Below are positions 692 to 32,000 of a DNA stretch of 32,000 nucleotides, piece by piece. The notes under the pieces are model-generated. The model saw only the letters and a program-made list of their open reading frames with translations. It did no database searches and was not told where the DNA came from. Source of the stretch: Candidatus Iainarchaeum sp. GTDB taxonomy: Archaea > Iainarchaeota > Iainarchaeia > Iainarchaeales > 0-14-0-20-34-12. Numbering within the stretch: the first letter of the stretch is position 1; the number at the start of each line of letters is the position of its first letter. The stretch lies in NCBI GenBank assembly GCA_030649345.1, contig JAUSKK010000029.1, positions 5,718-37,717 on the forward strand, written 5' to 3'. A program made the position numbers and the translations under genes.

Positions 692-759
692 GGCAATGAT
701 GATGTAAGTCGCGACCGATCCTTTCATCAGGAAGTGACGATTGAGTCCAAATCTGAGCC
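692..759 (+). ncRNA. C/D box sRNA (2'-O-methylation guide RNA)
   Basis: C box ATGATGA 696-702; 12-nt guide TGTAAGTCGCGA 703-714; D' CCGA 715-718; C' GTGACGA 734-740; 12-nt guide TTGAGTCCAAAT 741-752; D box CTGA 753-756. GGC (692-694) pairs with GCC (757-759) as a terminal stem. The exact 12-nt box spacing is the archaeal hallmark. Confidence 0.6.
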
Positions 760-894
760 TTCTATTTTCGTTGTATCGAGCATAGCGCAATTAAAATCAA
801 CAGATTTTAATGCACATTAAAACCAATGGTTTTAATCGCGAAGATACGACATCGTACCGCCGGCGATCTCCGGCGAATGGGTCCAAATCTGAGC
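745..894 (+). repeat. Hairpin-core mini-insertion, copy A (possible non-autonomous mobile element), with flanking direct repeat
   Basis: GTCCAAATCTGAGC at 745-758 recurs perfectly at 881-894 (19/24 identity if extended 5'). The 122-nt insert contains the palindromic core 788-839 and a GC hairpin CGCCGG-cgatct-CCGGCG (859-876) abutting the right repeat. Confidence 0.6.
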
Positions 895-896
895 AT

Positions 897-5311: not shown

Positions 5312-5968
5312 TTATTTCTTAAAAATAACTCCGCCTATGTCTTCGGTTAATTCTAAATTTCGAAAACCCGCATTTTTTAATTTTGTTAAAACAGTTTTCT
5401 TTAAATTTTTTCCACGAACAATTCCAGTATTGCCGGTGTAGTGAAAGCCTTGGCCTTTGGATTTGAGAACTCGAAACATTTGGAAATAAAATTTTTCCGA
5501 AAACAATTCGCTTGCAATTTTAATGCTCGGAGGATCGTGAATAATAAAATCAAAAAAATTATCTGGAAATGTTTGGATTTCTTCAAAAATATTTCCTTGC
5601 TTGAATTCAATTTTAGAATTGGAAAACAATTCTTGAGAATGCTGATTTTGTTTTGCTAAAGCAATTACGTTTTCGTCTACTTCAAAAGAATGAATTTTTT
5701 GAACAGCTGGAATTTTAGATAAATGAGTACTGACATACCCTAAACCAGTACAAGTATCTAAAATTTTCCCAAAAGGTTTGCCCAGATAGGCCACCATTTG
5801 TTTTGTGCTTTTTTCCGGATCTGTGTCTTTAATGCAATGCATTCGAATTCCGGAAATTTCCAAATACGGCCAAGTCTGAGTTTCAACCAATTTGTAATAT
5901 TTTTGAGTTTGCTCTGAAAAAAATCCAATCAAACGCTTGGGAGACTTATTATTCTTTTCTTTATTCAT
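5312..5968 (-). CDS. SAM-dependent methyltransferase
   Basis: ILDTCTGLGY (motif I), SFEVDENV (motif II), and IIHDPPS (D-P-P motif IV, typical of N-methyltransferases acting on nucleic acid or protein amino groups). Confidence 0.75.
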   Translation of the reverse strand: MNKEKNNKSPKRLIGFFSEQTQKYYKLVETQTWPYLEISGIRMHCIKDTDPEKSTKQMVAYLGKPFGKILDTCTGLGYVSTHLSKIPAVQKIHSFEVDENVIALAKQNQHSQELFSNSKIEFKQGNIFEEIQTFPDNFFDFIIHDPPSIKIASELFSEKFYFQMFRVLKSKGQGFHYTGNTGIVRGKNLKKTVLTKLKNAGFRNLELTEDIGGVIFKK

Positions 5969-10021: not shown

Positions 10022-12910
10022 ATGAAAAAGTTAATCTTATTTTTTTTAATTCTATTAGCTTTGCCTGCTTTCTCAGTTTATGAAATTGTAAATCAAACAT
10101 GCACCAGCACACAACAAGGAAGTTTTACACAGGCTAATTTGTTATTGGAAACTTCAGACAGTTATTTTTTAACCTCTGATAAAAATGTATACCAGGCTCC
10201 AAAAATAGCAATAGGTACTTGGACTTTGAAAGGAAGTATTCCGTATCGAATTACTCAATTGGTAAATGATCCTGCTACAAATACTTTGTATGCCGCTGGA
10301 ACTCCTGCCAATGATGGCTGGAATTTTTATACCTACAAGTCAGTAGACCAAGGGGTTACTTGGACGCTAGTCGGCACGCCGATTAATAGTTTGAATTATT
10401 TTTTATTTTACAGAGTAAATTCATTAAATGCCAGTAATGGATTCAACAAAATTTATTCCTTAGCCGGAGTCCCTCTTCAATGGTATGAGATTGCCAGCTT
10501 GGAAGAAGGAACACAAATTCGGGCAATTACATCCGGCAATTTTCAAGAGCATGCAGTAGGCTACAAGAATAATATTGGAACTTTGTATTCAGGACCATTT
10601 CTTAACCAGTTAACAGCCCGCGGTTCTTTGCCGGAAAATGAACAGCCTTGGGGTGATGCTTTGGGATTTTATGATGGAAACTTGTTTATGATTACCCAAA
10701 ACAATGAAGGAAAAGGTTCTGTTTTTAGGTCAATGAATTCAGGAAATACTTGGGAAAAAGTATTCACGCAAGACATGGCTTTCACTGAAATTGCCGGAAA
10801 ACCTGAAACTGGAATAAATGTTTTGGCAAGCAATGGAAATATTTTTAGATCCTGGAATGGAACCACATGGATTAGTTTGGGAACTTCTGGATTTTCTCCC
10901 ATGGGTGAATTGTTATCTCCGGAAGCGGGAAATTATTTATTGGCAGTCATTACTGGAAGATTGAATCAAGTAATATGCAATGCTTGGCCTATGTTGAAAG
11001 TAAAACAAAAAAATATTTCCGCAGCACCTGGAGCTACAGTAACTTTGGATGTTTCAGATTCTACAGATTTAGAAAATCATACAATTCAATACACTTGGAA
11101 TTTTTCTAGCGGACCCCTAGGAGCGCCAGCGCCTGTTTTGAATAATTCAGCCACAGCAATTGCAACTGCAATTATGCCTAACCAAACTGGAGAATATTTT
11201 TTTGAAATTAGATTAAAAGACAACGGAAGTCCAGCAATTCTGCCAGCCCAAGGCAGTGCAGATTTAATTACAGTTACAGTTCAAGAAAATCAAGCTCCAA
11301 CAGCAAATGCGGGCCCAGATATTCAATGCACAATAAATCAAAATTGCACAGTGCAAGGAATTGGAACAGATCCAGAAAATCAGTCTTTAGAATATAATTG
11401 GAATTTGGCACTGAATTCACCTCAAGGCCCAATTCAAACTGTCGGAGCAGAAGATCAAACAAATTATACTTTTACCGCAGCTCAAATTGGGACTTATATT
11501 TTAACTTTTGCAGTTACAGATAATGCCAATCAAACTGCAAAAGATCAAGTAACGATCACAATGGTTTCAGATCAAGTCAATCACGCGCCCATAGTAAATG
11601 CTGGACCTGATGTACTTTGTGTAATTAATGAAGAGTGTACTTTAGTTGGACAAGCCAGTGATCCAGATAATGATGAATTAAATTATTTCTGGACACCGGA
11701 AGTTATGCCAGGCAATGCCATCCCAGCACAACCACCCATTAGTCTTACTTTAGTGTTTACAGCAAACACAATTGGAAATTATACATTTAAATTAACTGCA
11801 CAAGATCGAGAAGATTTAGATGACCCGAACTTATTGGAAGCCAGTGATACAGTTAATGTAATCATGTTTGCCAGTCAAGAAGAATTAGAAGCAGCCAATC
11901 AAGTGCCTATAGCGAATGCAGGAGTCAATCAAATTGTACACACAGGAGAAATTGTTCAATTAAATGGAAATCAAAGTTCAGATCCAGAAGGACAAACAAT
12001 AAATTATGCTTGGACTCAAGTCAGCGGACCTTTAATTACAATTCAAAACGGAAATCAAATGCTTGCAAATTTTACTCCAACTCAAATTGGAACTTATGTG
12101 TTTCGATTAAGTGTTACAGATTCTTTGGAAGCCAGTGCCAATGATGATATTAGTATTCAGGTATTGGAACAAATTTCTGGAACACAAACAGTCTGCGGAA
12201 ACAATGTATGTGAAGAAGGAGAAAATGTTGTCAGCTGTGCGTTTGATTGTGAAATTAATTCAAGCGGAGAAAGACCAGGATTTAGTGTTCCTTTTGCGCG
12301 CGCAGGAAGAGATCAAAATGTAGAAGAAGGAGATTTTGTGATATTGGATGGAAGTACAAGCTCAGATGCAGATGAACAAGCACTGGCTTTTGAATGGGAA
12401 CAAACCAGCGGAGAAACTGTAGCCATTATTAATGCAGATCGAAGTAAAGCAATTTTTGTAGCAGGAGAAACAGGAACAGAATATGAATTCAAATTAACAG
12501 TCACAGACGAATCCGAAAATACTGCAACTGATTTAGTTAAAGTCAAAGTAGAAACTGTGACAGCTCGAAGAACTACCGGCAGCGGACAAAACCCAACAGA
12601 TACTACAGTAAATGCAGGAAACACTTTAGGAAATACATGCAGTGGAACTGTGTGTTTAGGATTTTGTTATTCAGGACAAGGAATATGCTGTACAGACGGC
12701 TGGCATTCGAATACTGAAACATGTCAAGAGTCTGGAGCACTTCCAATTGGAAACAATGTTGATTTTAATTTAGGAACTGGAGGAATGCCTGATTTTCTAA
12801 GCTCTCCGATTTTTTTAATATTAACTGCAGTTTCAATTTTAGGCGGAATTATTGCATGGTTCTTGAAATTTAGAAAAAAAGAACCCTATCAAAAAAAGCA
12901 AGCTATTTAA
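10022..12910 (+). CDS. membrane-anchored surface protein: BNR/Asp-box beta-propeller-like region, five PKD-like Ig domains, Cys stalk, C-terminal TM
   Basis: Signal peptide MKKLILFFLILLALPAFS. Asp-boxes SVDQGVTW and SMNSGNTW. Repeated NAGPD/NAGVN...(Y/F)xW...G.Y.F.L.V.D PKD-like units (nt ~10997-12559). CGNNVCEEGENVVSCAFDC module. TM IFLILTAVSILGGIIAWFL followed by KFRKK. Confidence 0.8.
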   Translation: MKKLILFFLILLALPAFSVYEIVNQTCTSTQQGSFTQANLLLETSDSYFLTSDKNVYQAPKIAIGTWTLKGSIPYRITQLVNDPATNTLYAAGTPANDGWNFYTYKSVDQGVTWTLVGTPINSLNYFLFYRVNSLNASNGFNKIYSLAGVPLQWYEIASLEEGTQIRAITSGNFQEHAVGYKNNIGTLYSGPFLNQLTARGSLPENEQPWGDALGFYDGNLFMITQNNEGKGSVFRSMNSGNTWEKVFTQDMAFTEIAGKPETGINVLASNGNIFRSWNGTTWISLGTSGFSPMGELLSPEAGNYLLAVITGRLNQVICNAWPMLKVKQKNISAAPGATVTLDVSDSTDLENHTIQYTWNFSSGPLGAPAPVLNNSATAIATAIMPNQTGEYFFEIRLKDNGSPAILPAQGSADLITVTVQENQAPTANAGPDIQCTINQNCTVQGIGTDPENQSLEYNWNLALNSPQGPIQTVGAEDQTNYTFTAAQIGTYILTFAVTDNANQTAKDQVTITMVSDQVNHAPIVNAGPDVLCVINEECTLVGQASDPDNDELNYFWTPEVMPGNAIPAQPPISLTLVFTANTIGNYTFKLTAQDREDLDDPNLLEASDTVNVIMFASQEELEAANQVPIANAGVNQIVHTGEIVQLNGNQSSDPEGQTINYAWTQVSGPLITIQNGNQMLANFTPTQIGTYVFRLSVTDSLEASANDDISIQVLEQISGTQTVCGNNVCEEGENVVSCAFDCEINSSGERPGFSVPFARAGRDQNVEEGDFVILDGSTSSDADEQALAFEWEQTSGETVAIINADRSKAIFVAGETGTEYEFKLTVTDESENTATDLVKVKVETVTARRTTGSGQNPTDTTVNAGNTLGNTCSGTVCLGFCYSGQGICCTDGWHSNTETCQESGALPIGNNVDFNLGTGGMPDFLSSPIFLILTAVSILGGIIAWFLKFRKKEPYQKKQAI

Positions 12911-12933: not shown

Positions 12934-15900
12934 ATGAATTCAAACAAAATTTTGCTTTTTTTAGTCTTAATTTTTTCAATCCAAACAGTTCAAGCTCAAT
13001 GGACTGAAACCACACCTTTGCCTTTAACTGGAATGACAATTGGAAGAGATATCACACGAGCCAGTGATGGCACTTTGTATGTTGGAGGAGACGGCATTCG
13101 TGTTTATAGTGCCAACAGCAATGGAACTTCTTGGACAGATACTAGCGTACTTGGAACAGTTGCATTTAATGCATTGGCCGCCGGTGATTCTGGAAACATC
13201 TATGCATTAACTGGAACAGCAGCAGGAAGTGGGATTCATAGATACAATGGAACAACTTGGACAACGCTTAAAACATTTGACAATATTTCCAGTGCCAATG
13301 ACATAGTCTACGTTGGAAACAATACATTGTATTTTTCTTATTTTAATGATGTAAATCGTTCAACGGACGGTGGAGTGAACTGGGCTTCAACTGGGTTGGT
13401 TACAGCATTGGGTGGAAGTGCTTCATCGTATTCAGTGCAAGATTTAGATTACGATGAAACTGGAGCAATATATGCTGTAGTGCAAAGATTTGCTCCAACT
13501 CAAGCTGAAGTTTGGAGATACAATGGAACAACTTGGACACAAGTAGCTGCTCTGTTAAATTATTCTTCTTCAAGAATTTTGGCTCACAAAGAAGGTTCTG
13601 CACCAACTCAAGTTTTTATTAATAATAATACAATTTTACTCAAAGGAAGTGGTGATGGCGCATTAACTTTCAGTGAAATAAAAACATTTACAAACTCAGT
13701 TCAAAAAATTTACAGATTAAGTGATGGAAAAATTACAGTTTTAGAAGGAGTTAAAGTATGGCGTTCAGCCAATGCAGATTCAGATATTATTGCTGGAGCA
13801 ACATTTAATGATTTGGGAAATGTTCGAAGTACAGGAACTGCTGGTGGAATAACCCAATCCGCCAACGGAAATTTATATGTTCTGGCCTATTGGCTGGGCG
13901 CAGGAGGAAGCAGTAATTTTGAATCCGGTGTTTATTATTTTGGGTCAGCACCGCCACCCAGCCAAGTTTGTGGAAATGGAACTATTGAAAGTCCAGAAGT
14001 ATGTGATGGAGCTAATTTAAATTCTCAAACTTGTTCCAGTCAAGGTTTTGCTTCTGGAACTCTGGCATGTAATGCCAATTGTTTAGGATTTAATACTTCT
14101 TCATGTGTTTCAAATCCTGTTTGTGGAAATAGTGTATGTGATGCTGGAGAAACCAGTGTAAATTGCTCCATGGATTGTGGCCCAGCTTCAACAACACCCA
14201 AAGCTTGCTGTACCAATCAAGATTGTAGTACTAGCCAAATTTGCAATCCCAGCAATCAAAGATGTGAAACAAAAACTGGAACTTCTTGTACCAGCAGAGC
14301 CAATTGTCCTGCAGGCCAAAGTTGTGTTTCTGGAATTTGTGGAAACAGTACTTCAACAGATCCAAACCGAACAGGACAAGGAACCAATTGTAATGGAAAT
14401 AATGGAATTTGCCCAATTGGATATTATTGTTCTCCTGTAACTGACACTTGTGTTCCAGGAGCAGTATGTTCAACATCATCTACAGACATGAATAATCATA
14501 CGTGTCCGCAAACTTGTGCAACTGTAACAGAACAAGGATACAGTACTACATCTACAACTTGTTTATCACAATCTTGTATTCCGACTTTTTCAACTCAAAA
14601 CATTCCGAATGGACCAGTTCAATGTTGTGGAATCAATTGTCAAACTGGACAAATTTGCGGAAGTAATGGAACTTGTCAAAACAGACAAAGATGTTCTTTA
14701 CCAGCAGACTTTATTGGAGGAACTGGAAGCACAACAGGACCTTCATGCGCAACAGATACAACTTGCGCAACAGGATATAGTTGTCAAACTGGATTTTGTA
14801 GATTAGCACCTGATTGCCCAACAGGAAATACTTGCGGACAAGACAGATATTGTGCGCCTTCAAGTGCTCCAGTTTGTCCTGGATCACAAGAGTGTGAAAG
14901 TCCATGTCAAAGATACGATACTGGGTTAGGTCAATGTGTGCAAGATAATTCTTTGCCTACTTGTTCACCTGGAGAAATTCAATGTTGTTCAGACAGTCAA
15001 TGTGGTTCAACGCAAGTATGTGTTCCAGATGGAAGTTCTACTGGAATTTGTCAAGAAAGAACTACTTTAACAGCATGTGAAAGTCAATCCAGTTACCAAG
15101 AAATAACATGTACCACCAATGCAGATTGTGCAGGACATGGAATAAATCCAATTTGTAATACTGCAAACAATAAATGTTATAATAAAACAGGAACAACTTG
15201 CAGTCCAGGAGATACAACAAGAGGTTGTAGTCCGAATACAGAATGTTTAGAAAATTATTGTTCAACCCCAAGTCTAGAAATGGTACCAACACAAGGTTCT
15301 TGTGCACCTGGAACAACTTGTGCAACCTCAGGTCCAAATCAAAATTTATGTGTTCCTTCTGGAACAATTTGCCCCAGTTCAGGAAATACTTGCCCAATTC
15401 CAGAAACTCCAATCAACAATGTATGTTTTACCTGCCAAGGAGAAAATTGTACAATTACTGACAGTATTGAATGTCCTACAACAGGACAAACACAAGCAGG
15501 AAGTATTTGCAATACAGACACAGATTGTTCATATTACGAAAGTTGTAATATTCAAACCAATGTTTGCCAAACTTTAGCATGCACAGGCACAGAAGTACCA
15601 GTCAATCACCGGTGTATTCCTGGCAGTGATTTTTGCCAAGATGCAACACTCAGAGAATTGGAAAGAATTATTGAAACCAATACAACCAATAGTGAAGTAA
15701 CCAGTTTACTGGAACGATTGCAGACAGAAATAGCTGCAGGAAATATAGGACAAGCACAGAATACTTTGCAAAAAATTATTGAAAAATTACCTGGAACTCA
15801 AGGAACAGATACCATTACTTTATTGCGGGAAGCCAGAACACAATTGGAAGCAGGAAATGCAGGACAAGCTCAAGCCATTTTACAAAGAGCAGCCCAGCAA

Positions 15901-16033: not shown

Positions 16034-16657
16034 ATGCCTAATTCTAATTTAGAAAAATATGCTTATGGAATTTTAACTAGAAATAATTCCCTGCGGGAAT
16101 ACGAATTTTTTTTATCCAACATCAGCTCAGAACTTTCATTGCAAGAACTGATAAAAGAATTTTTAAAAACCAGAAAAAAAGTACGATTACTGGATTTAGG
16201 TTCTGGAGAAGGACAGGCTTTAAAAGAATTAAAAAATTTATTCAAAAATCAAATTGAAACTATTGGAATGGATTTATTGAATAGCCCAAAAGAAAATTTT
16301 GATCGGTTTATTTTAGGAAATATTTTGGAAAAAGAATTTCCAAAAGAATGCGATATTATTTTAGGCTTCCGTTCACTGCATGAAATAGGAAATATTGAAA
16401 AAAATTTGGAAAAAATCTCTCAAGCACTAAAAATTGGCGGCTTGGCTTTTTTATCCATACGCATCCAAGACTCGCACAATGGAGTTATGCAATGGATTGG
16501 AAAAATAATTGAACAGGATTTAAAATTTTTGCAAAAAATCATTCAACAAAAAGAATGGAAAAATATGAAAATTCAAGGATATACAGTAAATGTAAAACTA
16601 GAAACTGCAGAAAGCATTACCAGTGGAGTGAACTTGATTTTGGTTCGAGTGCAATAA
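16034..16657 (+). CDS. class I SAM-dependent methyltransferase
   Basis: LLDLGSGEGQAL motif I. The ATG at 16034 is chosen because the tracked TTG start at 15989 overlaps the upstream gene. Confidence 0.7.
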   Translation: MPNSNLEKYAYGILTRNNSLREYEFFLSNISSELSLQELIKEFLKTRKKVRLLDLGSGEGQALKELKNLFKNQIETIGMDLLNSPKENFDRFILGNILEKEFPKECDIILGFRSLHEIGNIEKNLEKISQALKIGGLAFLSIRIQDSHNGVMQWIGKIIEQDLKFLQKIIQQKEWKNMKIQGYTVNVKLETAESITSGVNLILVRVQ

Positions 16658-18596: not shown

Positions 18597-21077
18597 ATGA
18601 CGCATAACCAAAAATTCTTAATTAGTTTAGCTATTTTAGTAGTTTTGTTTTCTTTGACTGCTTTGGCTCAAGATCAACCACCTGTAGAAGGAGGAGATAC
18701 ACCACCAACAGATCAAGGACCACCGCCAACAGATCAACCACCAATTGAGGATCATCCACTGGAAGGCGGAGAACAACCACCTGCAGATCAACAAAGACCA
18801 CCTGAAGGACAGAATCCTGAAGGAGACCCTAATTACAGACCACCAGAAGGACAAGGGCCTTATCCAGGACAAGATGGACAACAACCTCCATTTGATCAAG
18901 GAAGACAACCTGAAGGACAAAATTTTCAAAGACCAACTACAGGCCCAGGTAACTGTCAAGGACAAGAACAATGCCAATTATATTGTGGAGTACACCCAGA
19001 GGAATGCCAACAATGGGCTGGCCAACAAGGAGTTCAAAGACAAGGCCCAATGAATGGAGGCCAAGGCTATGGATCTGAAAGAAGATCCGGCGGAATTGGT
19101 GGACCTCAATGTGGAACACCCGAAGAATGTAGAGGTTTAGCTCAAGAATTTGGTGTTGCAAATAGTATTGGAGTACGAACAGGACCTAGCGGATGCACCA
19201 GTGAAGAAGAATGTAAAAAAATATTTGATGAAAACCCACAAGAAGTTAGGCAATGGGCTCAACAAAATGGAATGATTGAACACAAGGGACAATTTATTGA
19301 AGCACGCGCCGGACCCGGCGGATGTTCAAGTCCAGAAGAATGTATGACTTATTGTAGAGAAAATCCAGAATCCTGTGATCAATTTGCTGGAAGAAGAGGA
19401 CAAGGATTTGAACAAGCATTTAATAAAATTGAACAAAGAGATCAACGAAAAGAAATGCAACAAGAGCGCAGAAAAGAAATGCGATTTGAAGGAATTCCAC
19501 GCGAAATAATTGAAGCTGGAGCAGAAACAGAATTTGTTCAAATGATGGCAGCCATGGCTAAATTCAGAACCCAGCGATTGCTAACTGAATTGGATAAAAT
19601 GGAAGAACGCATTTCATTGGCTGGAACAGAATTAGGAATCCAAATCGATGGAAGCAAATTTTCAGAAATGAAAACAAAAATTGAAACTGCATTAAATGAT
19701 TTAGGAAATGTAACCAATGCAGAAGAAGCCAATGCAAAAATGAAAGCTTTCTTTGAAATCATGGAAGGACCCAATGGAGTTCAAGGAGTATTTGAAAACT
19801 TTGGACAACAAATGCAAGAAAAAGTACAAGTATTGTTTGATGAAAAATTCAAACGAATGCAAACATTGCAAGAACAAATGAAAAACAAAGAACAAGAATG
19901 TAGAACTGCTGGAGACCAAATGAGACAACAACAAGAACAAAATATGCAGCAGCAAAGACAACAACAAGATGAACAGTTTAGAACTCAGGATGAAGAAAGA
20001 AGAAGACAATACGAAGAACAAATGAGAAATCAACAAGGACAATACCCTCAAGGCGGAGATCCAAATTATAGACCACCAGAAGGACAAGGACCTTACCCAG
20101 GCGATGGTGGACAGTACCCTCAAGGAGGAAGTTATCCTGAAGGAAGCATGCCACCAGAAGGCGGAGATTATCAGCCACCTCCAGAACAACCACCAGCCAG
20201 CAATGCAACTGCTCAACCAATTGTAATACAATTGCAAGAATTTCCAGGACCTCAAGGACCTGGCCCCAATGATTTCGGCGGAGGCTTTCCAGACGGACCC
20301 ATGAACGGCGGTCCTTATGACAGCGGACAAGGATTTGGCGGACCTCAAGGACCCGGCGGATTTGGAGATGGAGAAATGCCAGCAGCTTGTCAAGAAATGC
20401 AAACACTTGGAACTGAAATGCAAGCTATTGGAGAAGAAATGAAAGCTTTAGGAGAAAAAGTACAAGGCGTATTTGGAAAACCTGAAGACCATGAGCAAGA
20501 CTTTGAAGAAGAGCCTTTGCCTCCTGAATTAATTGAACAGCAAGCGCAATTGTTCATCAAAGTATTTGATTTCAAATTCAATGGAATCAAACAAAAACGA
20601 GATGAAATTGCAGGCCAAGGATTCGATGTAAAAGAATTCGATGAATTAATTGCATGGATTATTTCCAGAAAAGAAGAAGGACTCAGAATTATTCGTTCTG
20701 GAGATGAAGAAAAAATGGATGAATTCTTCAATAGCATGGGAGATTCTCAATTTGACTGGGAAGATAGAATCCGAGATTCTATTGCACGACAACAATTGGA
20801 AAAACAAATTTCCAAAGTTGAAGAATTTTTACCCAAAGCCCAAGAAGCCATTAATGCAGGAAAAGAACGAGGTTTAGATACCAGTGACTTGGAAGAAATT
20901 TACGGGGAATTGAAAGGATTGGTTGAAAATGCACGTGCACAATTAAGCCAAGGAAAAGAAATTTCTCTGCAAGATTTCAGACTACAATTACGAGAAGTGT
21001 ATCTGAATTTCCGAGAAGAATGGGTTAGCTTACGAGAAGAAGCTGCAAGAACAGGATTAATTGTACTGGCAAGGTGA
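18597..21077 (+). CDS. secreted Pro/Gln/Gly-rich protein with four G-C-x-(S/T)-x-E-E-C modules and long coiled coils
   Basis: Signal peptide ends in ALA. Low-complexity PPxDQ/PEGQ tracts. Modules GNCQGQEQCQLYC..., GPQCGTPEEC..., GPSGCTSEEEC..., GPGGCSSPEECMTYC... Heptad-rich Q/E/R/M central and C-terminal parts. Confidence 0.75.
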   Translation: MTHNQKFLISLAILVVLFSLTALAQDQPPVEGGDTPPTDQGPPPTDQPPIEDHPLEGGEQPPADQQRPPEGQNPEGDPNYRPPEGQGPYPGQDGQQPPFDQGRQPEGQNFQRPTTGPGNCQGQEQCQLYCGVHPEECQQWAGQQGVQRQGPMNGGQGYGSERRSGGIGGPQCGTPEECRGLAQEFGVANSIGVRTGPSGCTSEEECKKIFDENPQEVRQWAQQNGMIEHKGQFIEARAGPGGCSSPEECMTYCRENPESCDQFAGRRGQGFEQAFNKIEQRDQRKEMQQERRKEMRFEGIPREIIEAGAETEFVQMMAAMAKFRTQRLLTELDKMEERISLAGTELGIQIDGSKFSEMKTKIETALNDLGNVTNAEEANAKMKAFFEIMEGPNGVQGVFENFGQQMQEKVQVLFDEKFKRMQTLQEQMKNKEQECRTAGDQMRQQQEQNMQQQRQQQDEQFRTQDEERRRQYEEQMRNQQGQYPQGGDPNYRPPEGQGPYPGDGGQYPQGGSYPEGSMPPEGGDYQPPPEQPPASNATAQPIVIQLQEFPGPQGPGPNDFGGGFPDGPMNGGPYDSGQGFGGPQGPGGFGDGEMPAACQEMQTLGTEMQAIGEEMKALGEKVQGVFGKPEDHEQDFEEEPLPPELIEQQAQLFIKVFDFKFNGIKQKRDEIAGQGFDVKEFDELIAWIISRKEEGLRIIRSGDEEKMDEFFNSMGDSQFDWEDRIRDSIARQQLEKQISKVEEFLPKAQEAINAGKERGLDTSDLEEIYGELKGLVENARAQLSQGKEISLQDFRLQLREVYLNFREEWVSLREEAARTGLIVLAR

Positions 21078-22426: not shown

Positions 22427-22512
22427 CTATTTAAAATCGCTTGATTTGCGATTTTAAAAACTTCAAAATTGAATGCAATTTTGAATCTATTTAAAATCCA
22501 GTGGATTTTAAA
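22427..22512. promoter_or_regulatory. array of three AT-rich perfect palindromes in the mscS / rpoH divergent intergenic region
   Basis: TTTAAAATCGC (22430-40) pairs with GCGATTTTAAA (22448-58). CAAAATTG (22464-71) pairs with CAATTTTG (22476-83). TTTAAAATCCA (22490-22500) pairs with TGGATTTTAAA (22502-12). The 12-nt direct repeat CTATTTAAAATC occurs at 22427 and 22487. Confidence 0.45.
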
Positions 22513-22725: not shown

Positions 22726-22959
22726 GTGGCTATAAAAATCGATACTCATAATCTTGTTCCAAAGCATGTTATAATGCCTAAGGAAACACTTTCTGAGCTT
22801 TTATCTAAACTGCAAGTGGATAGCACTGAGCAATTACCGATTATTTTACGAAACGATCCATCCATTAAACGATTAAAGCCAGAAAAAGGCGATATTATTA
22901 AAATCAGCCGAAAAAGCCTGACTGCTGGAAGTTATACTTATTATAGGGTTGTGCGATGA
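22726..22959 (+). CDS. rpoH: DNA-directed RNA polymerase subunit H (Rpo5)
   Basis: HNLVPKHVIMPKETLSELL...LP.I...DP......GDIIKI.R.S...G.Y.YYR.V. GTG start with GAGG Shine-Dalgarno. ATGA overlap with rpoB''. Confidence 0.9.
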   Translation: MAIKIDTHNLVPKHVIMPKETLSELLSKLQVDSTEQLPIILRNDPSIKRLKPEKGDIIKISRKSLTAGSYTYYRVVR

Positions 22960-24422
22960 CTGATAAATGGCCTTTATTGGATTCCTATTTCAGGACCAAA
23001 AGCTTTGTAGACCAAGAAATTGCTAGTTTTGACCAATTTGTAGAAGAAAAAATGCCTGAAATTTTGGAAGAAAACAAAGAAATTGCCCCAAAAATTGAAG
23101 AAGTTCGAATTGAATTAAGCGACATTGAAGTATTAAAACCTAGAATTATTGAAGTCGATGGTTCGCCTAGAAATGATTTTTATCCAGTAGAAGCAAGATT
23201 GCGAAACAGAACCTATTCTGGTCCTTTGTATATTACTATGAAATTGTACAGAAGAGATGTAGAACAAGATGTACGCCGAACGTATATCGGGGAATTACCC
23301 ATTATGACCAAATCTAAGTTATGCTGGTTAAATGGAAAAACCGAAGATGAATTAATTGGCTTAGGCGAAGACCCAATGGACTTTGGCGGATATTTCATTA
23401 TTAATGGAGCAGAAAAAGCATTAATGACTCAAGAAGTTTTATCCAGTGACCGAGTTCTAATTTCCAAAACAGGCAAAGATGATGTACGTGCTGAAGTGAT
23501 TAGTACTCGCGGTGCCTTCAAAGGAAAAGTTAGTGTCAACAGAAAAAACAATGGTTCTTTGAGTGTAAGCTTTCCAGCCAGTCCAAAAAAATTACGTTTA
23601 TTTGTTTTAATGAAAGCTTTGGGTTTGGATACTAAAGAAAAAATAATGAATGCTTTTACTCCAGGAAAAGAAATTGAAAACGATATTTTAGTAAATTTAG
23701 AAAGCTTGGATGTAGAAAGTGTAGAAGATGCTTTAGATCGAATTGGAAAATATGTTGCACCCGGACAAGTTATTGATTATAGATTAAGAAGAGCGCAAGA
23801 AATTTTAGATGGATTCTTATTACCCCACATTGGTCAAACCAAAGAAGACAGACTAGCTAAAGCGTATTATTTGGGAATGATGGCCAGCAAAGCAGTTGAA
23901 CGATACCATGGCTTACGTGAAGAAGATGACAAAGATCATTATGCCAACAAACGTTTAGAATTAAGTGGAAAATTAATGGAACACTTATTTAGGTATGCTT
24001 TCAAATATTTAATTAAAGACTTAAAATTCCAAATTGACAGAACTATTACCCGAAGAAGAAAATTAAACATTAGCACTATTGTTCGACCGGATGCCATTAC
24101 TGAAAGAATTCGGTTTGCTATGAGTACAGGAAACTGGATTGGACGAGCTTCCGGAGTTAGTAAATTTATGGATCGAGTCAATTACTTGAGTCCTTTAACC
24201 GATATGCGAAAAATTAAAAGTTCATTAAACAAAAACAGAGAATTATACGAAGCCAGAGATGTTCATGGAACTCACTGGGGACGAGTTGGAGCAATTGAAA
24301 CACCCGACGGCCCAAATTGTGGTTTAGTAAAAAATTTAGCCATTTTAGCTCGAGTAACTACAGATTCCAAAATTTTACCAGTTGAAGAATTATTAAAATC
24401 TAGAGGAGTAAAACTAGAATAA
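22956..24422 (+). CDS. rpoB2: DNA-directed RNA polymerase subunit B'' (Rpo2N)
   Basis: N-terminal half of RNAP subunit B: FGGYFIINGAEKAL, HYANKRLELSG, THWGRVGAIETPDGPNCGLVKNLA. Confidence 0.95.
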   Translation: MTDKWPLLDSYFRTKSFVDQEIASFDQFVEEKMPEILEENKEIAPKIEEVRIELSDIEVLKPRIIEVDGSPRNDFYPVEARLRNRTYSGPLYITMKLYRRDVEQDVRRTYIGELPIMTKSKLCWLNGKTEDELIGLGEDPMDFGGYFIINGAEKALMTQEVLSSDRVLISKTGKDDVRAEVISTRGAFKGKVSVNRKNNGSLSVSFPASPKKLRLFVLMKALGLDTKEKIMNAFTPGKEIENDILVNLESLDVESVEDALDRIGKYVAPGQVIDYRLRRAQEILDGFLLPHIGQTKEDRLAKAYYLGMMASKAVERYHGLREEDDKDHYANKRLELSGKLMEHLFRYAFKYLIKDLKFQIDRTITRRRKLNISTIVRPDAITERIRFAMSTGNWIGRASGVSKFMDRVNYLSPLTDMRKIKSSLNKNRELYEARDVHGTHWGRVGAIETPDGPNCGLVKNLAILARVTTDSKILPVEELLKSRGVKLE

Positions 24423-24513
24423 GGAGAGGGTCAGGATTACCCTAAAACTGGGGAGAACCTTGGTTCTCCGCGGTTTGGAATTATTAAAATCTAGAGGAGT
24501 CAAATTAGAGTAA
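24387..24513 (+). repeat. 36-nt direct repeat of the rpoB'' 3' end bracketing a 55-nt GC-rich double-hairpin insert (copy C)
   Basis: 24387-24422 versus 24478-24513 is 33/36 identical. Insert 24423-24477 carries hairpins AGGGT-7nt-ACCCT (24427-43) and GGAGAACC-TT-GGTTCTCC (24452-69). Confidence 0.7.
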
Positions 24514-24514
24514 A

Positions 24515-24552
24515 AAAATTATATTGATTAAAGAAAATTATATTTAAAGAAA
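24515..24552 (+). promoter_or_regulatory. tandem 19-nt TATA-like repeat upstream of rpoB'
   Basis: AAAATTATATT(GA)TTAAAGAAA at 24515-36 and AAAATTATATTTAAAGAAA at 24534-52. The second TTATAT lies about 30 nt upstream of ATG 24575. Confidence 0.3.
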
Positions 24553-24574
24553 AATATTTGTGTTGTGAAAATGT

Positions 24575-26404
24575 ATGAGTAAAGAAGGATTACGAGAAAA
24601 AGCTAAAGTCTACATTAATGGAAGACTAATTGGATTCCATGACAAACCATTACAGTTAACCAAAGACATTATTGGATCTAGAAGAATCAGCCAAATTGAT
24701 TCACAAATTAATGTAGCCTATGATGAAAAAACAAACGAAGTTTACATTAATTCTGATTCAGGCCGAGTACAAAGACCAGTCATTGTAGTTGAAAATGGAA
24801 AATCTAAATTAACCGAAGAAATTGTCAAAAAATTACAAAAACAAGAACTCAACTGGAATGACTTAGTGGAAAAAGGAATTATTGAATACTTGGATGCAGA
24901 AGAAGAAGAAAATGCATACGTGGCCATTGATGATGAAAGCATTACAGCAGAACATACCCATTTAGAAATTAATCCAATTGGAATTGAAAGTATTATTACC
25001 AGCATGATTCCTTACTTAGAACACAACATGGCTGGAAAAGCATTGCATGGAGCCAAAATGTTCAAACAAGCTGCCGGCATTAGCTACGTGAATCCAAAAT
25101 ACAGAATGGACACAGAAGGATACTTACTTTATTATCCTCAAAAAGCTTTGGTTAAAAGCAAGACCATGGACTTGTTAAAAATGGATGTACGCCCGCAAAG
25201 TCAAAATTTTGTGGTAGCCATTATGCCTTTTTATGGATGGAATGCATTTGATGCAGTAGTCTTGAACCGAGGGGCTGTAGAACGCGGATTGGGAAGAATG
25301 GCTTATTATAGAACTTATGATGCAGTACAAAAAAGATATCCAGGCGGACAAAAAGACAAATTTGAAATTCCAACCGAAGAAACTGTAGGATACTTAGGAG
25401 CAGAATATTACAAATCTTTAGGCGAAGACGGTTTAGCTGAAGTAGAAGCTAAAGTAGATGGAAAAACTGCAGTTATTGGAAAAACCAGTCCTCCGCGATT
25501 TTTAGAAGAAGTCTCTGAATTTGGAGTAGTAAAAGAAAAACGAAGAGAAGCTAGTGAAACTGTACGAAAACAAAAATCAGGACATGTAGATGAAGTCATT
25601 ATCACCGAAGATTTAGATGGAAGTATTTTGGCTAAAATTAAAGTTCGAAGCGACATGATTCCAGAAGTAGGAGACAAATTCAGTTCACGACACGGACAAA
25701 AAGGAGTTGTGGGAGCCGTCATTCCAGAAGAAGACATGCCATTTACTCAAGATGGAATTAAACCAGACTTAATGTTAAACCCGCACTCAATTCCAAGCCG
25801 TATGACAGTAGGACACTTATTGGAAATGTTGGCCGGAAAAGCCAGCAGTATGCAAGGAGAACAAATTGATGGAACACCCTTCAATAATGTTCCTTTAAGT
25901 GAATTGAAAAAAATGTTAAAAGAACATGGTTTACGCGAAGATGGAAAAGAAATTTTCTACGATGGAATTACTGGAGAACGAATTGAAGGAGAAATTTTCA
26001 CAGGAGTTGTTGCTTACAGAAGATTGTATCACATGGTAGCTCACAAAATGCAAGCTAGAAGCCGAGGACCAGTACAAATTTTAACACGACAGCCAACCGA
26101 AGGAAAAGAAAAAGAAGGTGGCCTAAGATTTGGTGAAATGGAAGCCGAAACTTTAGTTGGACACGGAAGCAGTATGTTATTGCATGAAAAAATGATTGAA
26201 GACTCAGACAAAGTTACTGAATTGGTTTGTGAAAAATGCGGAATCATTGCAGTCAACGACAAAATCAGAAACAGAAAATACTGCCAAGTCTGCGGAAGTA
26301 CCAAAGTCTATCCAGTGGAAATGAGTTATGGTTTCAAATTAATGTTAGATGAATTAAAAGCATTGGGAATGTATCCTATTTTGCATTTGCGAGACAAGGT
26401 GTAA
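24575..26404 (+). CDS. rpoB1: DNA-directed RNA polymerase subunit B' (Rpo2C)
   Basis: C-terminal half of subunit B: GDKFSSRHGQKGV, PDLMLNPHSIPSRMTVG, LRFGEMEAETLVGHG, and a C-terminal Zn ribbon CEKCG...CQVCG. Confidence 0.95.
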   Translation: MSKEGLREKAKVYINGRLIGFHDKPLQLTKDIIGSRRISQIDSQINVAYDEKTNEVYINSDSGRVQRPVIVVENGKSKLTEEIVKKLQKQELNWNDLVEKGIIEYLDAEEEENAYVAIDDESITAEHTHLEINPIGIESIITSMIPYLEHNMAGKALHGAKMFKQAAGISYVNPKYRMDTEGYLLYYPQKALVKSKTMDLLKMDVRPQSQNFVVAIMPFYGWNAFDAVVLNRGAVERGLGRMAYYRTYDAVQKRYPGGQKDKFEIPTEETVGYLGAEYYKSLGEDGLAEVEAKVDGKTAVIGKTSPPRFLEEVSEFGVVKEKRREASETVRKQKSGHVDEVIITEDLDGSILAKIKVRSDMIPEVGDKFSSRHGQKGVVGAVIPEEDMPFTQDGIKPDLMLNPHSIPSRMTVGHLLEMLAGKASSMQGEQIDGTPFNNVPLSELKKMLKEHGLREDGKEIFYDGITGERIEGEIFTGVVAYRRLYHMVAHKMQARSRGPVQILTRQPTEGKEKEGGLRFGEMEAETLVGHGSSMLLHEKMIEDSDKVTELVCEKCGIIAVNDKIRNRKYCQVCGSTKVYPVEMSYGFKLMLDELKALGMYPILHLRDKV

Positions 26405-26406
26405 AC

Positions 26407-29019
26407 ATGTTACAGAAAAAAATTGACAATATTGAATTCAGAATCTTAAATCCTGAAATGATTCGAAAAATGAGTGCCATTGAAATCAAAACAGCAGAAA
26501 CCTATGACCGAGATGGATATCCTATGGAAGAAGGATTAATGGATTCACACTTAGGAGTCATTAACCCAGGATTAAGATGTAAGACTTGCGGACAAAAAAT
26601 GAAAGAATGCCCAGGTCACTTTGGAAGCTTTGAATTGGTTCGACCAGTAACGCATGCTAAATTTAGCAAAAAAGTTGAAACAGTATTAATGTTAACTTGC
26701 AAAGATTGTGGAAGAATTTTATTAAAAGAAGAAGATCAAGCCAAAGTACGCGCAGGAAATTACAAAGGAGAACTATTAATTAAAAAAGTAAAAACACGAA
26801 GTACTAAAATCAAAAAATGCCCGTACTGTCAAGCCAAACGACCCAAGCCCAAATTAGACAAGCCAACCAATTTTTACTTAGACAAAGAAAGAATTTACCC
26901 ACATGCAATCCGAGAATGGTTAGAAAAAGTACCAGACACAGATTTAGAATTATTGGCATTTAATCCAAAAATTATCCGACCCGAATGGTTAATACTAACA
27001 GTCATGCCAATCCCGCCTATTACAATTCGACCCAGTATTACTTTAGAAACTGGAATTAAAAGTGAAGATGACTTAACGCACAAATTGGTGGACATAGTTC
27101 GAATTAATCAAAGATTAAAAGAAAATATTGATGCTGGAGCACCTCAATTAATTATTGAAGATCTCTGGGATTTATTGCAATACCATGTAACTACTTATTT
27201 CGATAACCAAATTGCAGGAGTTCCTCCATCGAAACACAGATCTGGCCGAGCTTTAAGAACAGTGGTGCAAAGATTGAAAGGAAAAAAAGGAAGATTCAGA
27301 TACAACTTAACTGGAAAAAGAGTTAATTTTGCAGCTCGTTCAACTATAAGTCCAGATCCATTTATTTCCATTAACGAAGTAGGAGTTCCAGAAGGAATGG
27401 TTCGAGATTTAACTTTATCCGAATTGGGAACGGAATGGAATTTGAAACGATTAAAGAAAACCATTGCAGACGGATATGTTTTATCTGTAGTGCGACCGGA
27501 TGGACGAAGAAAAATTGTTACACCCGAAACCATGAAAGAAATTGAAGAAGAATTAGCCGTAGGCTACAAAATTGAACGCCAATTATTAAACGGAGATATT
27601 GTTTTATTCAACCGACAACCTTCCTTGCATAGATTAAGTATGCTGGCTCACCGAGTCAAAATCTTGCCTGGAAAAACTTTGCGATTAAATCCAATTGTAT
27701 GTAAACCTTACAACGCAGACTTTGATGGAGATGAAATGAACTTACATGTTCCTCAAACCGAAGAAGGAAAAACAGAAGCATTGGAATTAATGCTGGTACA
27801 AAATCAAGTTTTAAGTCCAAGATACGGAATGCCAATTGTCATTTTGGATGAAGATGGAATTTCTGGATCCACAGTATTAACTTTAGACACCACAGAATTG
27901 GATCGAGAAACTGCTTACCGGTATTTTTACGAAATGGGAATCAAAGAACTTCCAAAACCAGACCGGGGAAATAAATATTCCGGAAAATTAATTTTCTCCC
28001 AATTATTACCCAAAGATTTGACTATGAAATATAGATCTAAAATGTGTACAGTGATTCAAAAAGCAGACGCAGATTATGAATGCAAAGGAGATAAATGCCC
28101 GCACTGTGTAGAAATTGTTAACGGTGAATTGGTACGCGGAGTAATTGATGATTATTCTTTAGGTGAAGGAAAAGGAAAACTAGTATACCATTTAGCTAAA
28201 ACTTACGCGCCTGAAATATTGGAACAATTTTATTACAAAATTAACCGAGTCATTTCAGATATTTTAACCAAACGAGGAATGACAGCTTCATTGGATGAAT
28301 ATGAAATTAATGAAGAAACTCAAAAGTTTGTTGAAAAAGCAGTTAAAGAAGGATTAACTGAAGCAGAAAAATTAGTGGAACAATACAGAAAAAAAGACTT
28401 GCAATTATTGCCTGGAAGAACTTTACAGCAAAGTTTCGAAATGCAAATGATGATGAATGCTCTTCGAGTGAAAGAAAAAGCTCAAAAGAAAATATTGAAA
28501 GAAAAACTAGGAATGGTATTAAACGAGAAACCAAAATTAAACACAGTTTTGATGATTATTGCCGGAGCTCGTGGAAGCAGTTTAAATTTAATGAATATGG
28601 CTGGATTCTGGGGCCAAGTAGCTGTACGTGAAGGAAGACCCAAACGAGGATTTAGAGGCAGAACTTTGTCTTTATTCAAACGAAACGATGTAGGAGCCAT
28701 AGCCCATGGGTTTGTTCAAGGAAACTTTATGAGCGGAATGAATGTCACAGAATACTTTTTCCACGCCATGGGTGGAAGACAAGGAGAAGTAGACACCGGT
28801 GTTTCCACCAAAGTTTCAGGATACTTATACCGTAGACTGGCTAATTCCTTAAAAGATTTAAGTGTCAAAGGAGACTTAACAGTTAGAACCAGTGATGGAA
28901 AAATTATGCAATACTTATACGGAGAAGACGGAGTATTCCCCATGAACAGTAAAAAAGGAGAAGCTGTAGACATGGATGAATTGTACGAAAAATTAAACGA
29001 AAAGGAGAAGAAAAAATGA
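26407..29019 (+). CDS. rpoA1: DNA-directed RNA polymerase subunit A' (Rpo1N)
   Basis: CKTCGQ..ECPGHFG zinc motif; [11 protein letters not shown]; catalytic [24 protein letters not shown] junction with rpoB'. Confidence 0.95.
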
Positions 29020-30624: not shown

Positions 30625-31029
30625 ATGCTAAAATTAACAAAAGATGAATTGCAGTACATGAATGCCTTTCAAGCCTTTACAGGTGTGATGGCACGCGATT
30701 GTGTTATACTAGACGACACAATTGTGTTTGTAGTCAAAGAAGAAGAAGTAGGAAAAGCGATTGGAAAAAATGGACAAAACGTAAAAAGTTTAAGCAATCG
30801 AACCAAGAAAAAAATCCAAATCATACCCTACTGCAAAGAAATTGAAACATTTATTCGACAAGTTTTCAGAGAAAACAAAATCGAAACAGTCACACGACAA
30901 GACCAAGAATTGATTGTAACTACCAACAATGCAGATAAAAAGAAAATATTACAAAACAAATGGAAATTTTTAATAATAAAAGAAGTAGCAAAAAGAAATT
31001 ATGAAATTGAAAACATTAAAATAAAATGA
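30625..31029 (+). CDS. nusA: archaeal NusA-like KH-domain transcription termination/antitermination protein
   Basis: GKAIGKNGQNVKSL (KH GxxG motif), about 134 aa, in the conserved position between rpl30e and rps12. Confidence 0.8.
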   Translation: MLKLTKDELQYMNAFQAFTGVMARDCVILDDTIVFVVKEEEVGKAIGKNGQNVKSLSNRTKKKIQIIPYCKEIETFIRQVFRENKIETVTRQDQELIVTTNNADKKKILQNKWKFLIIKEVAKRNYEIENIKIK

Positions 31030-31090
31030 TGAGGAAACATTGATTATGAATTCGAAATTGAAAATTTTAAAATTCCAGGAGGAATTTTAA

Positions 31091-31519
31091 ATGGCCAGAG
31101 GAGAATTTGCAGCACGACAATTAGAAAGTGTGCGACAAAAATGGCGATGGAAAGACCCCTACTATAAATCCAGAGCATTGCGGCATAACGTAAAATACGA
31201 TTTATTGGAAGGATCCCCTCAAGCACGAGGCATTGTCTTAGAAAAACGCGGAGTTACAGCACGACAGCCCAATTCAGGTATTCGAAAATGTGTACGCGTT
31301 CAATTAACCAAAAACGGAAGACAATTAACTGCATTTGCGCCTAAAGATGGAGCCATTAAATTTATTGAAGAACACGACGAAGTCATTGTAGAAGGATTGG
31401 GTGGACGAAAGAAAGGATCTCCTGGAGATTTATGGGGAGTGAAATACAAAGTCATTAAAGTCAACAACCAATCCTTGCAAAGTCTTCGAACTGGAAAGAT
31501 AGAAAAGGTTAAGAGGTAA
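31091..31519 (+). CDS. rps12: ribosomal protein uS12
   Basis: [25 protein letters not shown] and [23 protein letters not shown] Shine-Dalgarno upstream. Confidence 0.95.
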
Positions 31520-31656
31520 TGGAAATAATTCAGTGCTGCTGAATGAAATGAAGCACAATTAAAACGAACAAGTTTTAATGTGCATTAAACCAAAGGTTTA
31601 ATCGCAGCACAACACACCAACCAGGTTATGGTTGAAAAGGTAAAGAGGTAATGGAA
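31502..31656 (+). repeat. Hairpin-core mini-insertion, copy B, bracketed by a 23-nt direct repeat spanning the rps12 stop and rps7 start
   Basis: GAAAAGGTTAAGAGGTAATGGAA (31502-24) versus GAAAAGGTAAAGAGGTAATGGAA (31634-56) is 22/23 identical. The insert has the core 31556-31605, homologous to 788-839. An outer stem pairs GTGCTGC (31533-39) with GCAGCAC (31604-10). Hairpin CAACC-7nt-GGTTG abuts the right repeat. Confidence 0.65.
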
Positions 31657-32000
31657 TTGAATAAAACAGAAAACGTACAAACACCTGCAGAAACCACAAC
31701 CAGTGTGGAAAAAGTCACTGAATCCGTAGTGACTGAAACCAAAACTGTTGTCAAGCCAACAAAAAGTTTTAATGTAAAATTGTTTGACAAATGGAGTTCA
31801 GAAGGAGTTCAAATCAATGACTTAAGTTTAGTGCGCTATGTTTTATTGGACTCAAAACGAATTCCAATTACTTATGGAAAATATTCTAAAAAAGCATTCC
31901 AAAAATCTCAAATGAGTATTGTAGAACGTTTGATTAACAAAATTATGCGATCTGGTCAAGGAAAAAGAAAATTATCCGGAAAGTATATTCGCGGACGAGG
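31651..32000 (+). CDS. rps7: ribosomal protein uS7, 3' end beyond the window, with an N-terminal extension of about 45 aa
   Basis: ATG overlaps the TAA of the second rps12-end copy (TAATG) and follows a GAGGT Shine-Dalgarno. KLFDKWSSEGVQINDLSLVRYV...MSIVERLINKIMRSGQGKRKLSGKY matches archaeal S7. Absent from the ORF track only because no stop codon falls inside the window. Confidence 0.85.
   Translation, partial: MELNKTENVQTPAETTTSVEKVTESVVTETKTVVKPTKSFNVKLFDKWSSEGVQINDLSLVRYVLLDSKRIPITYGKYSKKAFQKSQMSIVERLINKIMRSGQGKRKLSGKYIRGR

Follow-up and report, generated by a model that had tools for sequence, protein, structure and literature searches.

We analysed a 32,000-nt stretch of a Candidatus Iainarchaeum contig (JAUSKK010000029.1, positions 5,718 to 37,717; hereafter the window), in which the two halves of the split RNA polymerase gene, rpoB'' and rpoB', are separated by a short structured insert lying between two copies of the rpoB'' 3' end. 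The reading we favor, at a probability of roughly 0.6, is that this junction (site 2) arose by a lineage-specific insertion of a foreign hairpin module, accompanied by a long duplication of the target. In archaea, few gene boundaries are as tightly packed and as conserved as the split rpoB and S12/S7 junctions. The RpoB'' protein encoded in the window is a 100% match to a protein from a 'Ca. Diapherotrites' (DPANN) metagenome-assembled genome (MAG), the next relatives being 77-78% identical, and open reading frames (ORFs) together with Pfam matches give the usual gene order around site 2 (rpoH-B''-B'-A'-A''-L30e-NusA-S12-S7).

A repeat finder placed the starts of the two gene-end copies 91 nt apart, with 33 of 36 positions (92%) identical. 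Both copies translate as ELLKSRGVKLE followed by a stop codon, and the three positions at which they differ (GTA/GTC, CTA/TTA, and GAA/GAG) are all synonymous. Scored at +1 per match and -3 per mismatch, the pair reaches 24, whereas eight shuffles of the window gave 9-15 for the best direct repeat at short range (30-400 nt); the repeat is genuine and exceeds chance expectation. The duplicated gene end and its synonymous-only differences, both reported in a first-pass annotation made from the sequence, are thus supported by the sequence itself, by the repeat finder and shuffle scores, and by translation of both copies, and the same annotation was correct in starting rpoB' 152 nt past the rpoB'' stop, as the ORF coordinates (24422 and 24575) give this gap.

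That the source is a metagenome-assembled genome raises the question of whether the duplication was created during assembly, which we regard as extremely unlikely. A Logan assembly (L001, run SRR13727527), possibly built from the same reads as the MAG, is identical to the window over 22905-27297. Three positions distinguish the two copies, which share no exact word longer than 23 nt, so that a k-mer collapse artefact is unlikely, and analogous structures are present at other loci of the window and in another Diapherotrites genome (L023), as described below. Exact-protein look-ups with RpoB'' and S12 for strain-level empty or filled alleles returned the same sample only.

The rpo operon was then compared in eight other Diapherotrites species. 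In five of these (L002, L005, L021, L022, and L027), which are 72-78% identical to the window in RpoB'', the rpoB''/rpoB' gap is 4-8 nt and the gene end is present once, and because of these short gaps the 152-nt gap of the window is taken to be derived. An insertion at the split-rpoB junction, as had been proposed in the first-pass annotation, is therefore matched by empty sites in five species, each with one copy of the gene end. Expanded junctions were found in the remaining three of the eight, with gaps of 40 nt in L023, 59 nt in L024, and an A-rich 199 nt in L028; L024 is a 97%-identical relative of L023, yet the two gaps differ in length. Junction expansion recurs in Diapherotrites but is lineage-specific.

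Several smaller observations were made on the junctions of these genomes. The rpoB'' ends of the 'KKL*' type resemble an old 9-nt duplication of a 'KL*' end (L023 11440-11510, L024 4020-4105), and L028 has long A-rich, low-complexity spacers between all of its rpo genes (11440-11670, 13490-13680, and 16300-16580). RpoB' in the window has a 4-residue insertion after MSKE relative to its relatives.

The 55 nt between the copies are structured and G+C-rich, and the surrounding DNA is 33-36% G+C. The insert folds at -24.5 kcal/mol (z = -2.9), with 1 of 200 shuffles folding equally well, and the fold contains the two hairpins that had been noted from the letters, one with a 5-bp stem and a 7-nt loop (hairpin A) and one with an 8-bp core (hairpin B). 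The first begins 4 nt past the rpoB'' stop codon, and the core of the second is a perfect palindrome, GGAGAACC-TT-GGTTCTCC (24452-24469), followed by GCGG. The ends of the insert (GGAGAGG... and ...GCGGTTTG) are not inverted repeats. Rfam covariance models run over 24380-24580 gave chance-level matches only (best E = 0.049, 20.7 bits against a gathering threshold of 48.5). A scan of JGI metagenomes with GGGGAGAACCNNGGTTCTCCGC, whose GG prefix excluded the viral form of the module described below, gave one chance match, in a contig of 69% G+C; an exact search for hairpin A (GGGTCAGGATTACCCTAAAAC) in viral contigs gave no match, and a search of INPHARED phages for copies of the insert returned nothing relevant.

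Two other identities were considered for this region and rejected. An archaeal bulge-helix-bulge intron, which would have two 3-nt bulges on either side of a 4-bp helix where excision occurs, is not supported, as 24375-24525 folds into two internal hairpins only, with weak flank pairing (z = -1.24), and no such geometry was seen on inspection of the fold. The 61-nt A+T-rich spacer that follows the right repeat copy was examined as a decayed third gene-end copy; its local alignment to the gene end scored 13, compared with a shuffle mean of 17, and its own internal repeat scored 34.

Coordinates of the features discussed; positions are those of the window unless a genome is named.
Feature	Position	Strand	Description
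rpoB''	22956-24422	+	488 aa; Rpb2 domains 1-3 (Pfam); terminates ELLKSRGVKLE-TAA
Left repeat copy, site 2	24387-24422	+	GAATTATTAAAATCTAGAGGAGTAAAACTAGAATAA; functional rpoB'' 3' end including stop; GTA, CTA, GAA
Insert, site 2	24423-24477	+	55 nt, G+C-rich; two hairpins; no Rfam match; not in related genomes
GGAGAGG motif	24423-24429	+	5' end of insert, adjoining the TAA stop
Hairpin A	24427-24443	+	5-bp stem AGGGT/ACCCT, 7-nt loop CAGGATT
Hairpin B	24445-24476	+	Outer stem AAACTG/CGGTTT around palindrome GGAGAACC-TT-GGTTCTCC
Right repeat copy, site 2	24478-24513	+	GAATTATTAAAATCTAGAGGAGTCAAATTAGAGTAA; non-coding, +1 frame relative to rpoB''; GAG before TAA
A+T-rich spacer	24514-24574	+	61 nt before rpoB'; internal ~21-nt tandem duplication, TATA-like runs
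rpoB'	24575-26404	+	609 aa; Rpb2 domains 4-7; MSKE start as in relatives
C/D box small RNA (sRNA), probable	692-758	+	GGCAATGATGA...CCGA...GTGACGA...CTGAGCC; sub-threshold Rfam matches
Site 1	738-897	+	24-nt repeat 738-761/874-897 (21/24) around 112-nt insert
Site 3	31502-31656	+	23-nt repeat (22/23) around 109-nt insert
Three-way-junction element copies (~80-105 nt)	770-874, 31533-31633; L010 1693-1756; L023 17300-17415, ~5350-5470		

The origin of the insert was approached through the viral contigs of IMG/VR, which were scanned once with the hairpin core plus two flanking bases, and a second time with GGAGAGG, a gap of 1-31 nt, and the hairpin. The first scan returned 8 contigs, all carrying GGAGAGG 3 bases upstream of the hairpin, mostly with a stop triplet just before it, and the second returned 26 instances of GGAGAGG with GGAGAACC/GGTTCTCC in 24 contigs. 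The 18-22 nt hairpin core of site 2 is identical in 24 IMG/VR contigs, the identity extending over 19-22 nt in L013, L015, L016, L018, L019, and L020, and two composition-matched control palindromes had no match in viral contigs. GGAGAGG precedes the hairpin in 26 of 26 viral instances, and a stop triplet lies at most 4 nt upstream in 18 of the 19 that are distinct. Site 2 reads TAA directly followed by GGAGAGG (24420-24429), exactly at the 5' boundary of the insert. Since the palindrome was the feature used to define and find the family, its match at site 2 is not independent evidence; GGAGAGG and its adjacency to a stop codon lay outside the first pattern, and the chance of finding both at site 2 is estimated at ~1e-4 (31/4^7 x 3/64). 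We therefore assign the site-2 insert to this module as a variant with an extra internal hairpin, a membership that rests on ~30 shared bases plus position. The first-pass annotation had favored an inserted element, and the match of the insert to a stop-adjacent hairpin module conserved in viral contigs gives it a foreign look, in agreement with that view. The viral consensus is a stop triplet, GGAGAGG, 3 nt, and GGAGAACC-WW-GGTTCTCC (IMG/VR L013-L020 and L029-L044).

The settings of the module in viruses are varied. At least three loci of phages (L038, L039, and L043) carry it 0-33 nt past a 110-nt variable repeat (VR) that ends a large ORF, and in these it is followed by a template repeat (TR) that is 85-88% identical and by the Rfam RT-18 RNA, with an RVT_1 ORF in L043. 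These loci are diversity-generating retroelements (DGRs), and in them the module occupies the place of the retrohoming hairpin (PMC3240598). RT-18 RNA also lies downstream of the module in L029 and L033. The module is present in at least six non-DGR contexts as well, and in contigs of giant-virus MAGs an asparagine synthetase gene carries it at its 3' end, antisense and in tandem; these tandem arrays extend the ORF with ENQGSPHLSSS repeats.

The phage loci raise the possibility that site 2 is itself a DGR-like pair, with the rpoB'' end as the VR analogue, followed by the hairpin and a TR analogue, either as a relic or served by a reverse transcriptase (RT) in trans. The arrangement at site 2 is like that of L038, L039, and L043 (PMC3240598) in having a gene 3' end, the GGAGAGG and GGAGAACC/GGTTCTCC module beside the stop codon, and a further copy of the gene end; inverted repeats downstream of the VR, as provided here by the hairpin, are a conserved requirement of DGRs (PMC3240598), and DGRs are known from DPANN archaea (PMC4372165). 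Against this reading, neither RT nor Avd nor RT-18 RNA was found in the 32-kb window with Pfam and Rfam, the repeat is 36 nt rather than ~110 nt, and there is no G+C-rich initiation of mutagenic homing sequence. The pattern of differences is also not that of adenine mutagenesis: copy 2 has C, T, and G where it departs from copy 1, so that none of the three differences falls at an adenine of the putative TR, and the right copy has A at 6 of 14 differences pooled over all repeat pairs, which is the compositional expectation. Hypermutation of a housekeeping target, an essential RNA polymerase subunit, is implausible, and the module also occurs in the non-DGR contexts mentioned above. We consider a DGR-like pair at site 2 very unlikely.

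The layout of left repeat, insert, hairpin, and right repeat, which had also been pointed out at two other places in the window, is indeed present at sites 1 and 3, as repeat pairs surround an insert at both. By its own score (12) the site-1 repeat is no better than chance, and what makes it credible is solely the homology of its insert to the insert of site 3 (31525-31633); these two inserts are homologous to each other and not to that of site 2. We rejected homology of the site-2 insert to the element at sites 1 and 3, which is not demonstrable, the only common feature being a hairpin apex (AACC..GGTT). The site-3 repeat covers TAATGG, in which the stop of S12 and the start of S7 overlap, and therefore the S12 end, the GAGGT Shine-Dalgarno (SD) site of S7, and its ATG are all retained; the S12/S7 gap is 0-5 nt in relatives. 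At site 1 the left copy is the 3' part of the probable sRNA at 692-758, for which several archaeal C/D families gave sub-threshold matches (best sR1, E = 1.3e-3), and the insertion duplicated the 3' guide and box D.

The inserts of sites 1 and 3 have in common an outer stem of 7-8 bp, an internal loop of 12-18 nt on the 5' side, and two adjoining perfect hairpins that have AAUC..GAUU and AACC..GGUU at their apices; another small hairpin abuts the right repeat. Five copies of this three-way-junction element were found in three Diapherotrites genomes, all in the orientation of the adjacent genes and with imperfect direct repeats on either side. Comparison of the A+T-rich window with L023, which is 51% G+C, shows 8 stem pairs in which both bases have changed and no pair that is broken. 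Rfam held no counterpart for the site-1, site-3, or L023 element, the core shared by sites 1 and 3 was not found in viral contigs, and a scan of a genome collection gave L010 only. The three-way-junction element is a conserved, apparently mobile structured element, and it shows the layout at site 2 to be part of a wider process.

Two side observations concern site 3. S7 in the window has an in-frame N-terminal extension of ~40 residues (31651-31775, T/V/E-rich) after Met-Glu relative to its relatives, which lies directly downstream of the right repeat. Logan contig L011, corresponding to 30692-31635 of the window, terminates 2 nt inside the same repeat, an end that could reflect either a repeat-induced or a polymorphism-induced break in the assembly graph.

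A further case of this layout was found in L023, which is 74% identical to the window in RpoB''. At its NusA/S12 junction the NusA gene end is duplicated over 34 nt around a 66-nt insert, the end ATTACGGTTTTGAGGAAGTAAGAATACGGTGAAA recurring 100 nt downstream as ATTACGGTTTTGAGGATATAAGAATAAGATGAAA, and a 12-bp G+C-rich hairpin stands directly before the right copy. This right copy reads DYGFEDIRIR*, compared with NYGFEEVRIR*, so that its changes are conservative or synonymous and the stop is intact. The region 18230-18400 of L023 also has a third, partial copy of the NusA end. The corresponding gap in the window (31003-31091) is 61 nt, compared with 1-8 nt in four relatives in which this junction is tight; it has a 20-nt repeat of the NusA end (18/20) with a chance-level score, followed by an 11-bp hairpin that carries the GGAGG SD site of S12 in its loop and ends at the ATG.

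Across these cases the duplications measure 23, 24, 34, and 36 nt, the inserts have neither inverted termini nor conserved ends, and a hairpin always abuts the right copy. Two types of module are involved, the virus-type GGAGAGG hairpin and the three-way-junction element, each with its hairpin against the right-hand copy. Two familiar classes of element were considered as an explanation. A miniature inverted-repeat transposable element or a derivative of an insertion sequence was rejected, as the three window inserts have no inverted termini and their duplications (23, 24, and 36 nt) are not of fixed length; a site-specific, tRNA-type att element also finds no support, as there are just 55 nt between the repeats and no integrase in the window.

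The duplication might also have been produced locally, if replication slipped or switched template at a pre-existing hairpin downstream of rpoB'' and the nascent strand, having copied the gene end and the hairpin, re-annealed upstream and recopied the gene end. There is weak microhomology at the junction (...GGTTTG/GAATTA compared with ...AGTTGAA/GAATTA), and operon junctions turn over fast in some relatives, as seen in the 40- and 59-nt gaps of L023 and L024 and the A-rich gap of L028. However, a tandem duplication of this kind predicts the order gene end, hairpin, gene end, hairpin, and a single hairpin block is present; sites 1 and 3 have no junction microhomology, and the arrival of the hairpin is left unexplained. 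Slippage is accordingly judged improbable.

The synonymous-only differences had been put forward in the first-pass annotation as a reason against decay of a duplication formed in place. This argument failed when a suitable null was applied. If only copy 2 drifts, three random changes keep the peptide and the stop with P = 0.011-0.028. A fairer null holds copy 1 under purifying selection, so that it accepts synonymous changes only, and lets copy 2 drift; taking 0.23-0.32 as the synonymous fraction, any one difference has a probability of 0.37-0.48 of being synonymous, which for all three gives P = 0.05-0.11. When five repeat pairs were pooled, giving 8 synonymous and 4 conservative non-synonymous differences, P was ~0.03-0.06 under the same null, in a set in which some repeats are under constraint as SD sites. 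Where a functional copy and a relic copy differ only synonymously, a proper null is needed before the differences are interpreted.

The polarity of the differences can be examined in the relatives. All four of the tight-junction relatives whose RpoB'' ends in GVKLE* read ...CTG/TTG GAG TAG/TGA, and the GGAG in these four lies 9-10 nt before the rpoB' ATG, as an SD site. In the rpo and r-protein genes of the window GAA is used 237 times and GAG 4 times (98% vs 2%); the same genes use TTA at 62% and CTA at 4%. As these four relatives all have GAG as the last codon, copy 2 keeps the ancestral, SD-constrained state, and copy 1 moved to GAA when GGAG no longer served rpoB' as its SD site. The change from GTC to GTA, too, is toward the preferred codon. 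With GAG to GAA and GTC to GTA driven by codon preference, one difference is left that needs chance synonymy. An element-borne copy of the gene end is not required by the synonymous pattern.

These data bear on the alternative that the inserted DNA carried its own rpoB'' end from another lineage, by Campbell-type or homology-facilitated illegitimate recombination, the copies then differing as orthologues do. Such an origin would account for three differences that are all synonymous, for a copy-2 GAG that is rare here and universal at that position in relatives, for the conservative or synonymous changes and intact stop of the right NusA-end copy in L023, and for the 8 synonymous and 4 conservative differences pooled over five repeat pairs. 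We nevertheless hold it to be unlikely, as under the fair null the pattern has P = 0.05-0.11 at site 2 and ~0.03-0.06 pooled, a native ancestral sequence predicts GAG equally well, there is no integrase or recombinase in the window and the insert is too small to encode anything, and the sRNA, rpoB'', and S12/S7 targets would each need a separate captured copy.

Several results weigh against an insertion of a foreign module with target duplication. The closest relatives are just 77-78% identical in RpoB'', and the ancestral state of the junction and of its 61-nt spacer can be read only at that distance. The complete 55-nt insert has no second copy in the window, in the JGI metagenome scan, or in the exact-pattern scans of IMG/VR. 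The distance from GGAGAGG to the hairpin is 22 nt at site 2, where it holds hairpin A, compared with 3 nt in 23 of the 26 viral instances (the remaining 3 have 10 or 19 nt), and hairpin A is not part of the viral form of the module. Flanking direct repeats are absent around the module in at least four further non-DGR viral contexts, and consequently the module does not always bring a duplication. Finally, neither an enzyme known for target duplications of 23-36 bp nor an integrase, RT, or other mobility gene was found among the ORFs tested with Pfam in the 32-kb window.

The data show that the junction gained an insertion, that the gene end was duplicated, that the insert resembles the viral module family, and that the layout recurs in this genome and in another Diapherotrites genome. 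On the insertion reading, a small foreign module would have landed directly after the rpoB'' stop codon, the junction gaining ~91 bp. The module would comprise the stop-adjacent GGAGAGG and the GGAGAACC/GGTTCTCC hairpin, with hairpin A as an extra internal hairpin, and the last 36 bp of the target would have been duplicated as if staggered breaks ~36 bp apart had been filled in. The left copy would have stayed the real gene end and drifted synonymously to preferred codons after GGAG lost its SD duty, and the right copy would be a non-coding relic of recent date in which the ancestral GAG persists. The stem-loops may now act only as a 3' structure of the mRNA that uncouples B'' from B', and the A+T-rich 61 nt may supply the start signals of rpoB'.

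Among the patterns described so far, site 2 comes closest to the insertion with long target duplication (ILTD) of Nobusato, Furuta, and Kobayashi (PMC2853133), in which DNA without a transposase, an integrase, or terminal inverted repeats is flanked by a target duplication of >30 bp. In that work a related genome has one copy of the target, the repeat sometimes overlaps a gene 3' end, and the reported cases are kilobase-sized bacterial restriction-modification units, with no archaeal case having passed the screen (PMC2853133). Site 2 resembles ILTD in its 36-nt duplication (>30 bp), in lacking mobility genes and inverted termini, and in having single-copy relatives, and differs in its cargo, which in this DPANN archaeon is a non-coding hairpin module of 55-112 nt. 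We know of no description of the enzymology of ILTD.

Likeness to other systems is more partial. IS1634/IS1549-type insertion sequences make long, variable target duplications and have terminal inverted repeats and a transposase; the inserts described here share the long variable repeats, and differ in having neither inverted termini nor conserved ends. Integrative elements with tRNA-type att sites and mobile ORFs of fungal mitochondria carry the 3' end of their target gene, span kilobases, and encode an integrase or endonuclease. As in these elements, the gene end is present twice at site 2 and the functional frame is preserved, but no integrase or endonuclease is found here and the insert is 55 nt. 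The double-hairpin elements of mitochondria are similarly small, hairpin-forming, dispersed inserts. Repetitive extragenic palindromes and bacterial interspersed mosaic elements (REP/BIME), and repetitive hairpin-forming elements of mitochondria (PMC2800124), are alike in being short G+C-rich hairpin inserts of A+T-rich compact genomes, in intergenic or intra-operon positions and with a patchy distribution across lineages. In contrast to site 2, where the insert is single-copy in the sequence searched, they are multi-copy within a genome, and they have not been described with duplications of 23-36 bp.

If the insertion reading is correct, core operons of a reduced DPANN genome would tolerate small non-coding insertions provided that overlapping stop and ribosome-binding signals are duplicated, and ILTD would extend to archaea and to tiny non-coding cargo. 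It would also connect an insert in an archaeal chromosome with a hairpin module whose other occurrences are in viruses, among them at the position of the retrohoming hairpin in phage DGRs. A broader proposal, which we consider unlikely, is that Diapherotrites genomes carry small, structured, non-coding modules which insert where a gene ends, with duplication of 23-36 nt of the gene or sRNA upstream, and that these are potential raw material for DGR target and template pairs, or products of a hairpin-directed, RT-dependent integration. Such insertions could seed DGR pairs because the same module sits between VR and TR in phage DGRs. A retroelement link, if true, would offer a testable route for the origin of template and variable repeat pairs, and hairpin-directed insertion of modules, if true, would be a previously undescribed mode of mobility in archaea. 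Without the retroelement link, site 2 would still be a clean marker of lineage-specific junction remodelling.

Three other features of the window were recorded. On the minus strand, 2004-2153 holds a tRNA gene with an intron of ~80 nt (Rfam, 44.4 bits) that was missed by ARAGORN; within the intron lies a 12-bp hairpin (2083-2109) similar to the one that opens a hairpin array in L010. Upstream of rpoH, three consecutive perfect hairpins of 10-11 bp, of the TTTAAAATC type, lie at 22430-22512, and arrays of this type are also present in relatives, with seven in a row at L010 1551-1750 and three at L005 8226-8309. Between ThiI and an MscS-like gene, 18597-21077 encodes an 826-aa ORF with low-complexity Q/P/G repeats (several direct-repeat families), and relatives have unannotated proteins of 800-900 aa at the matching position.

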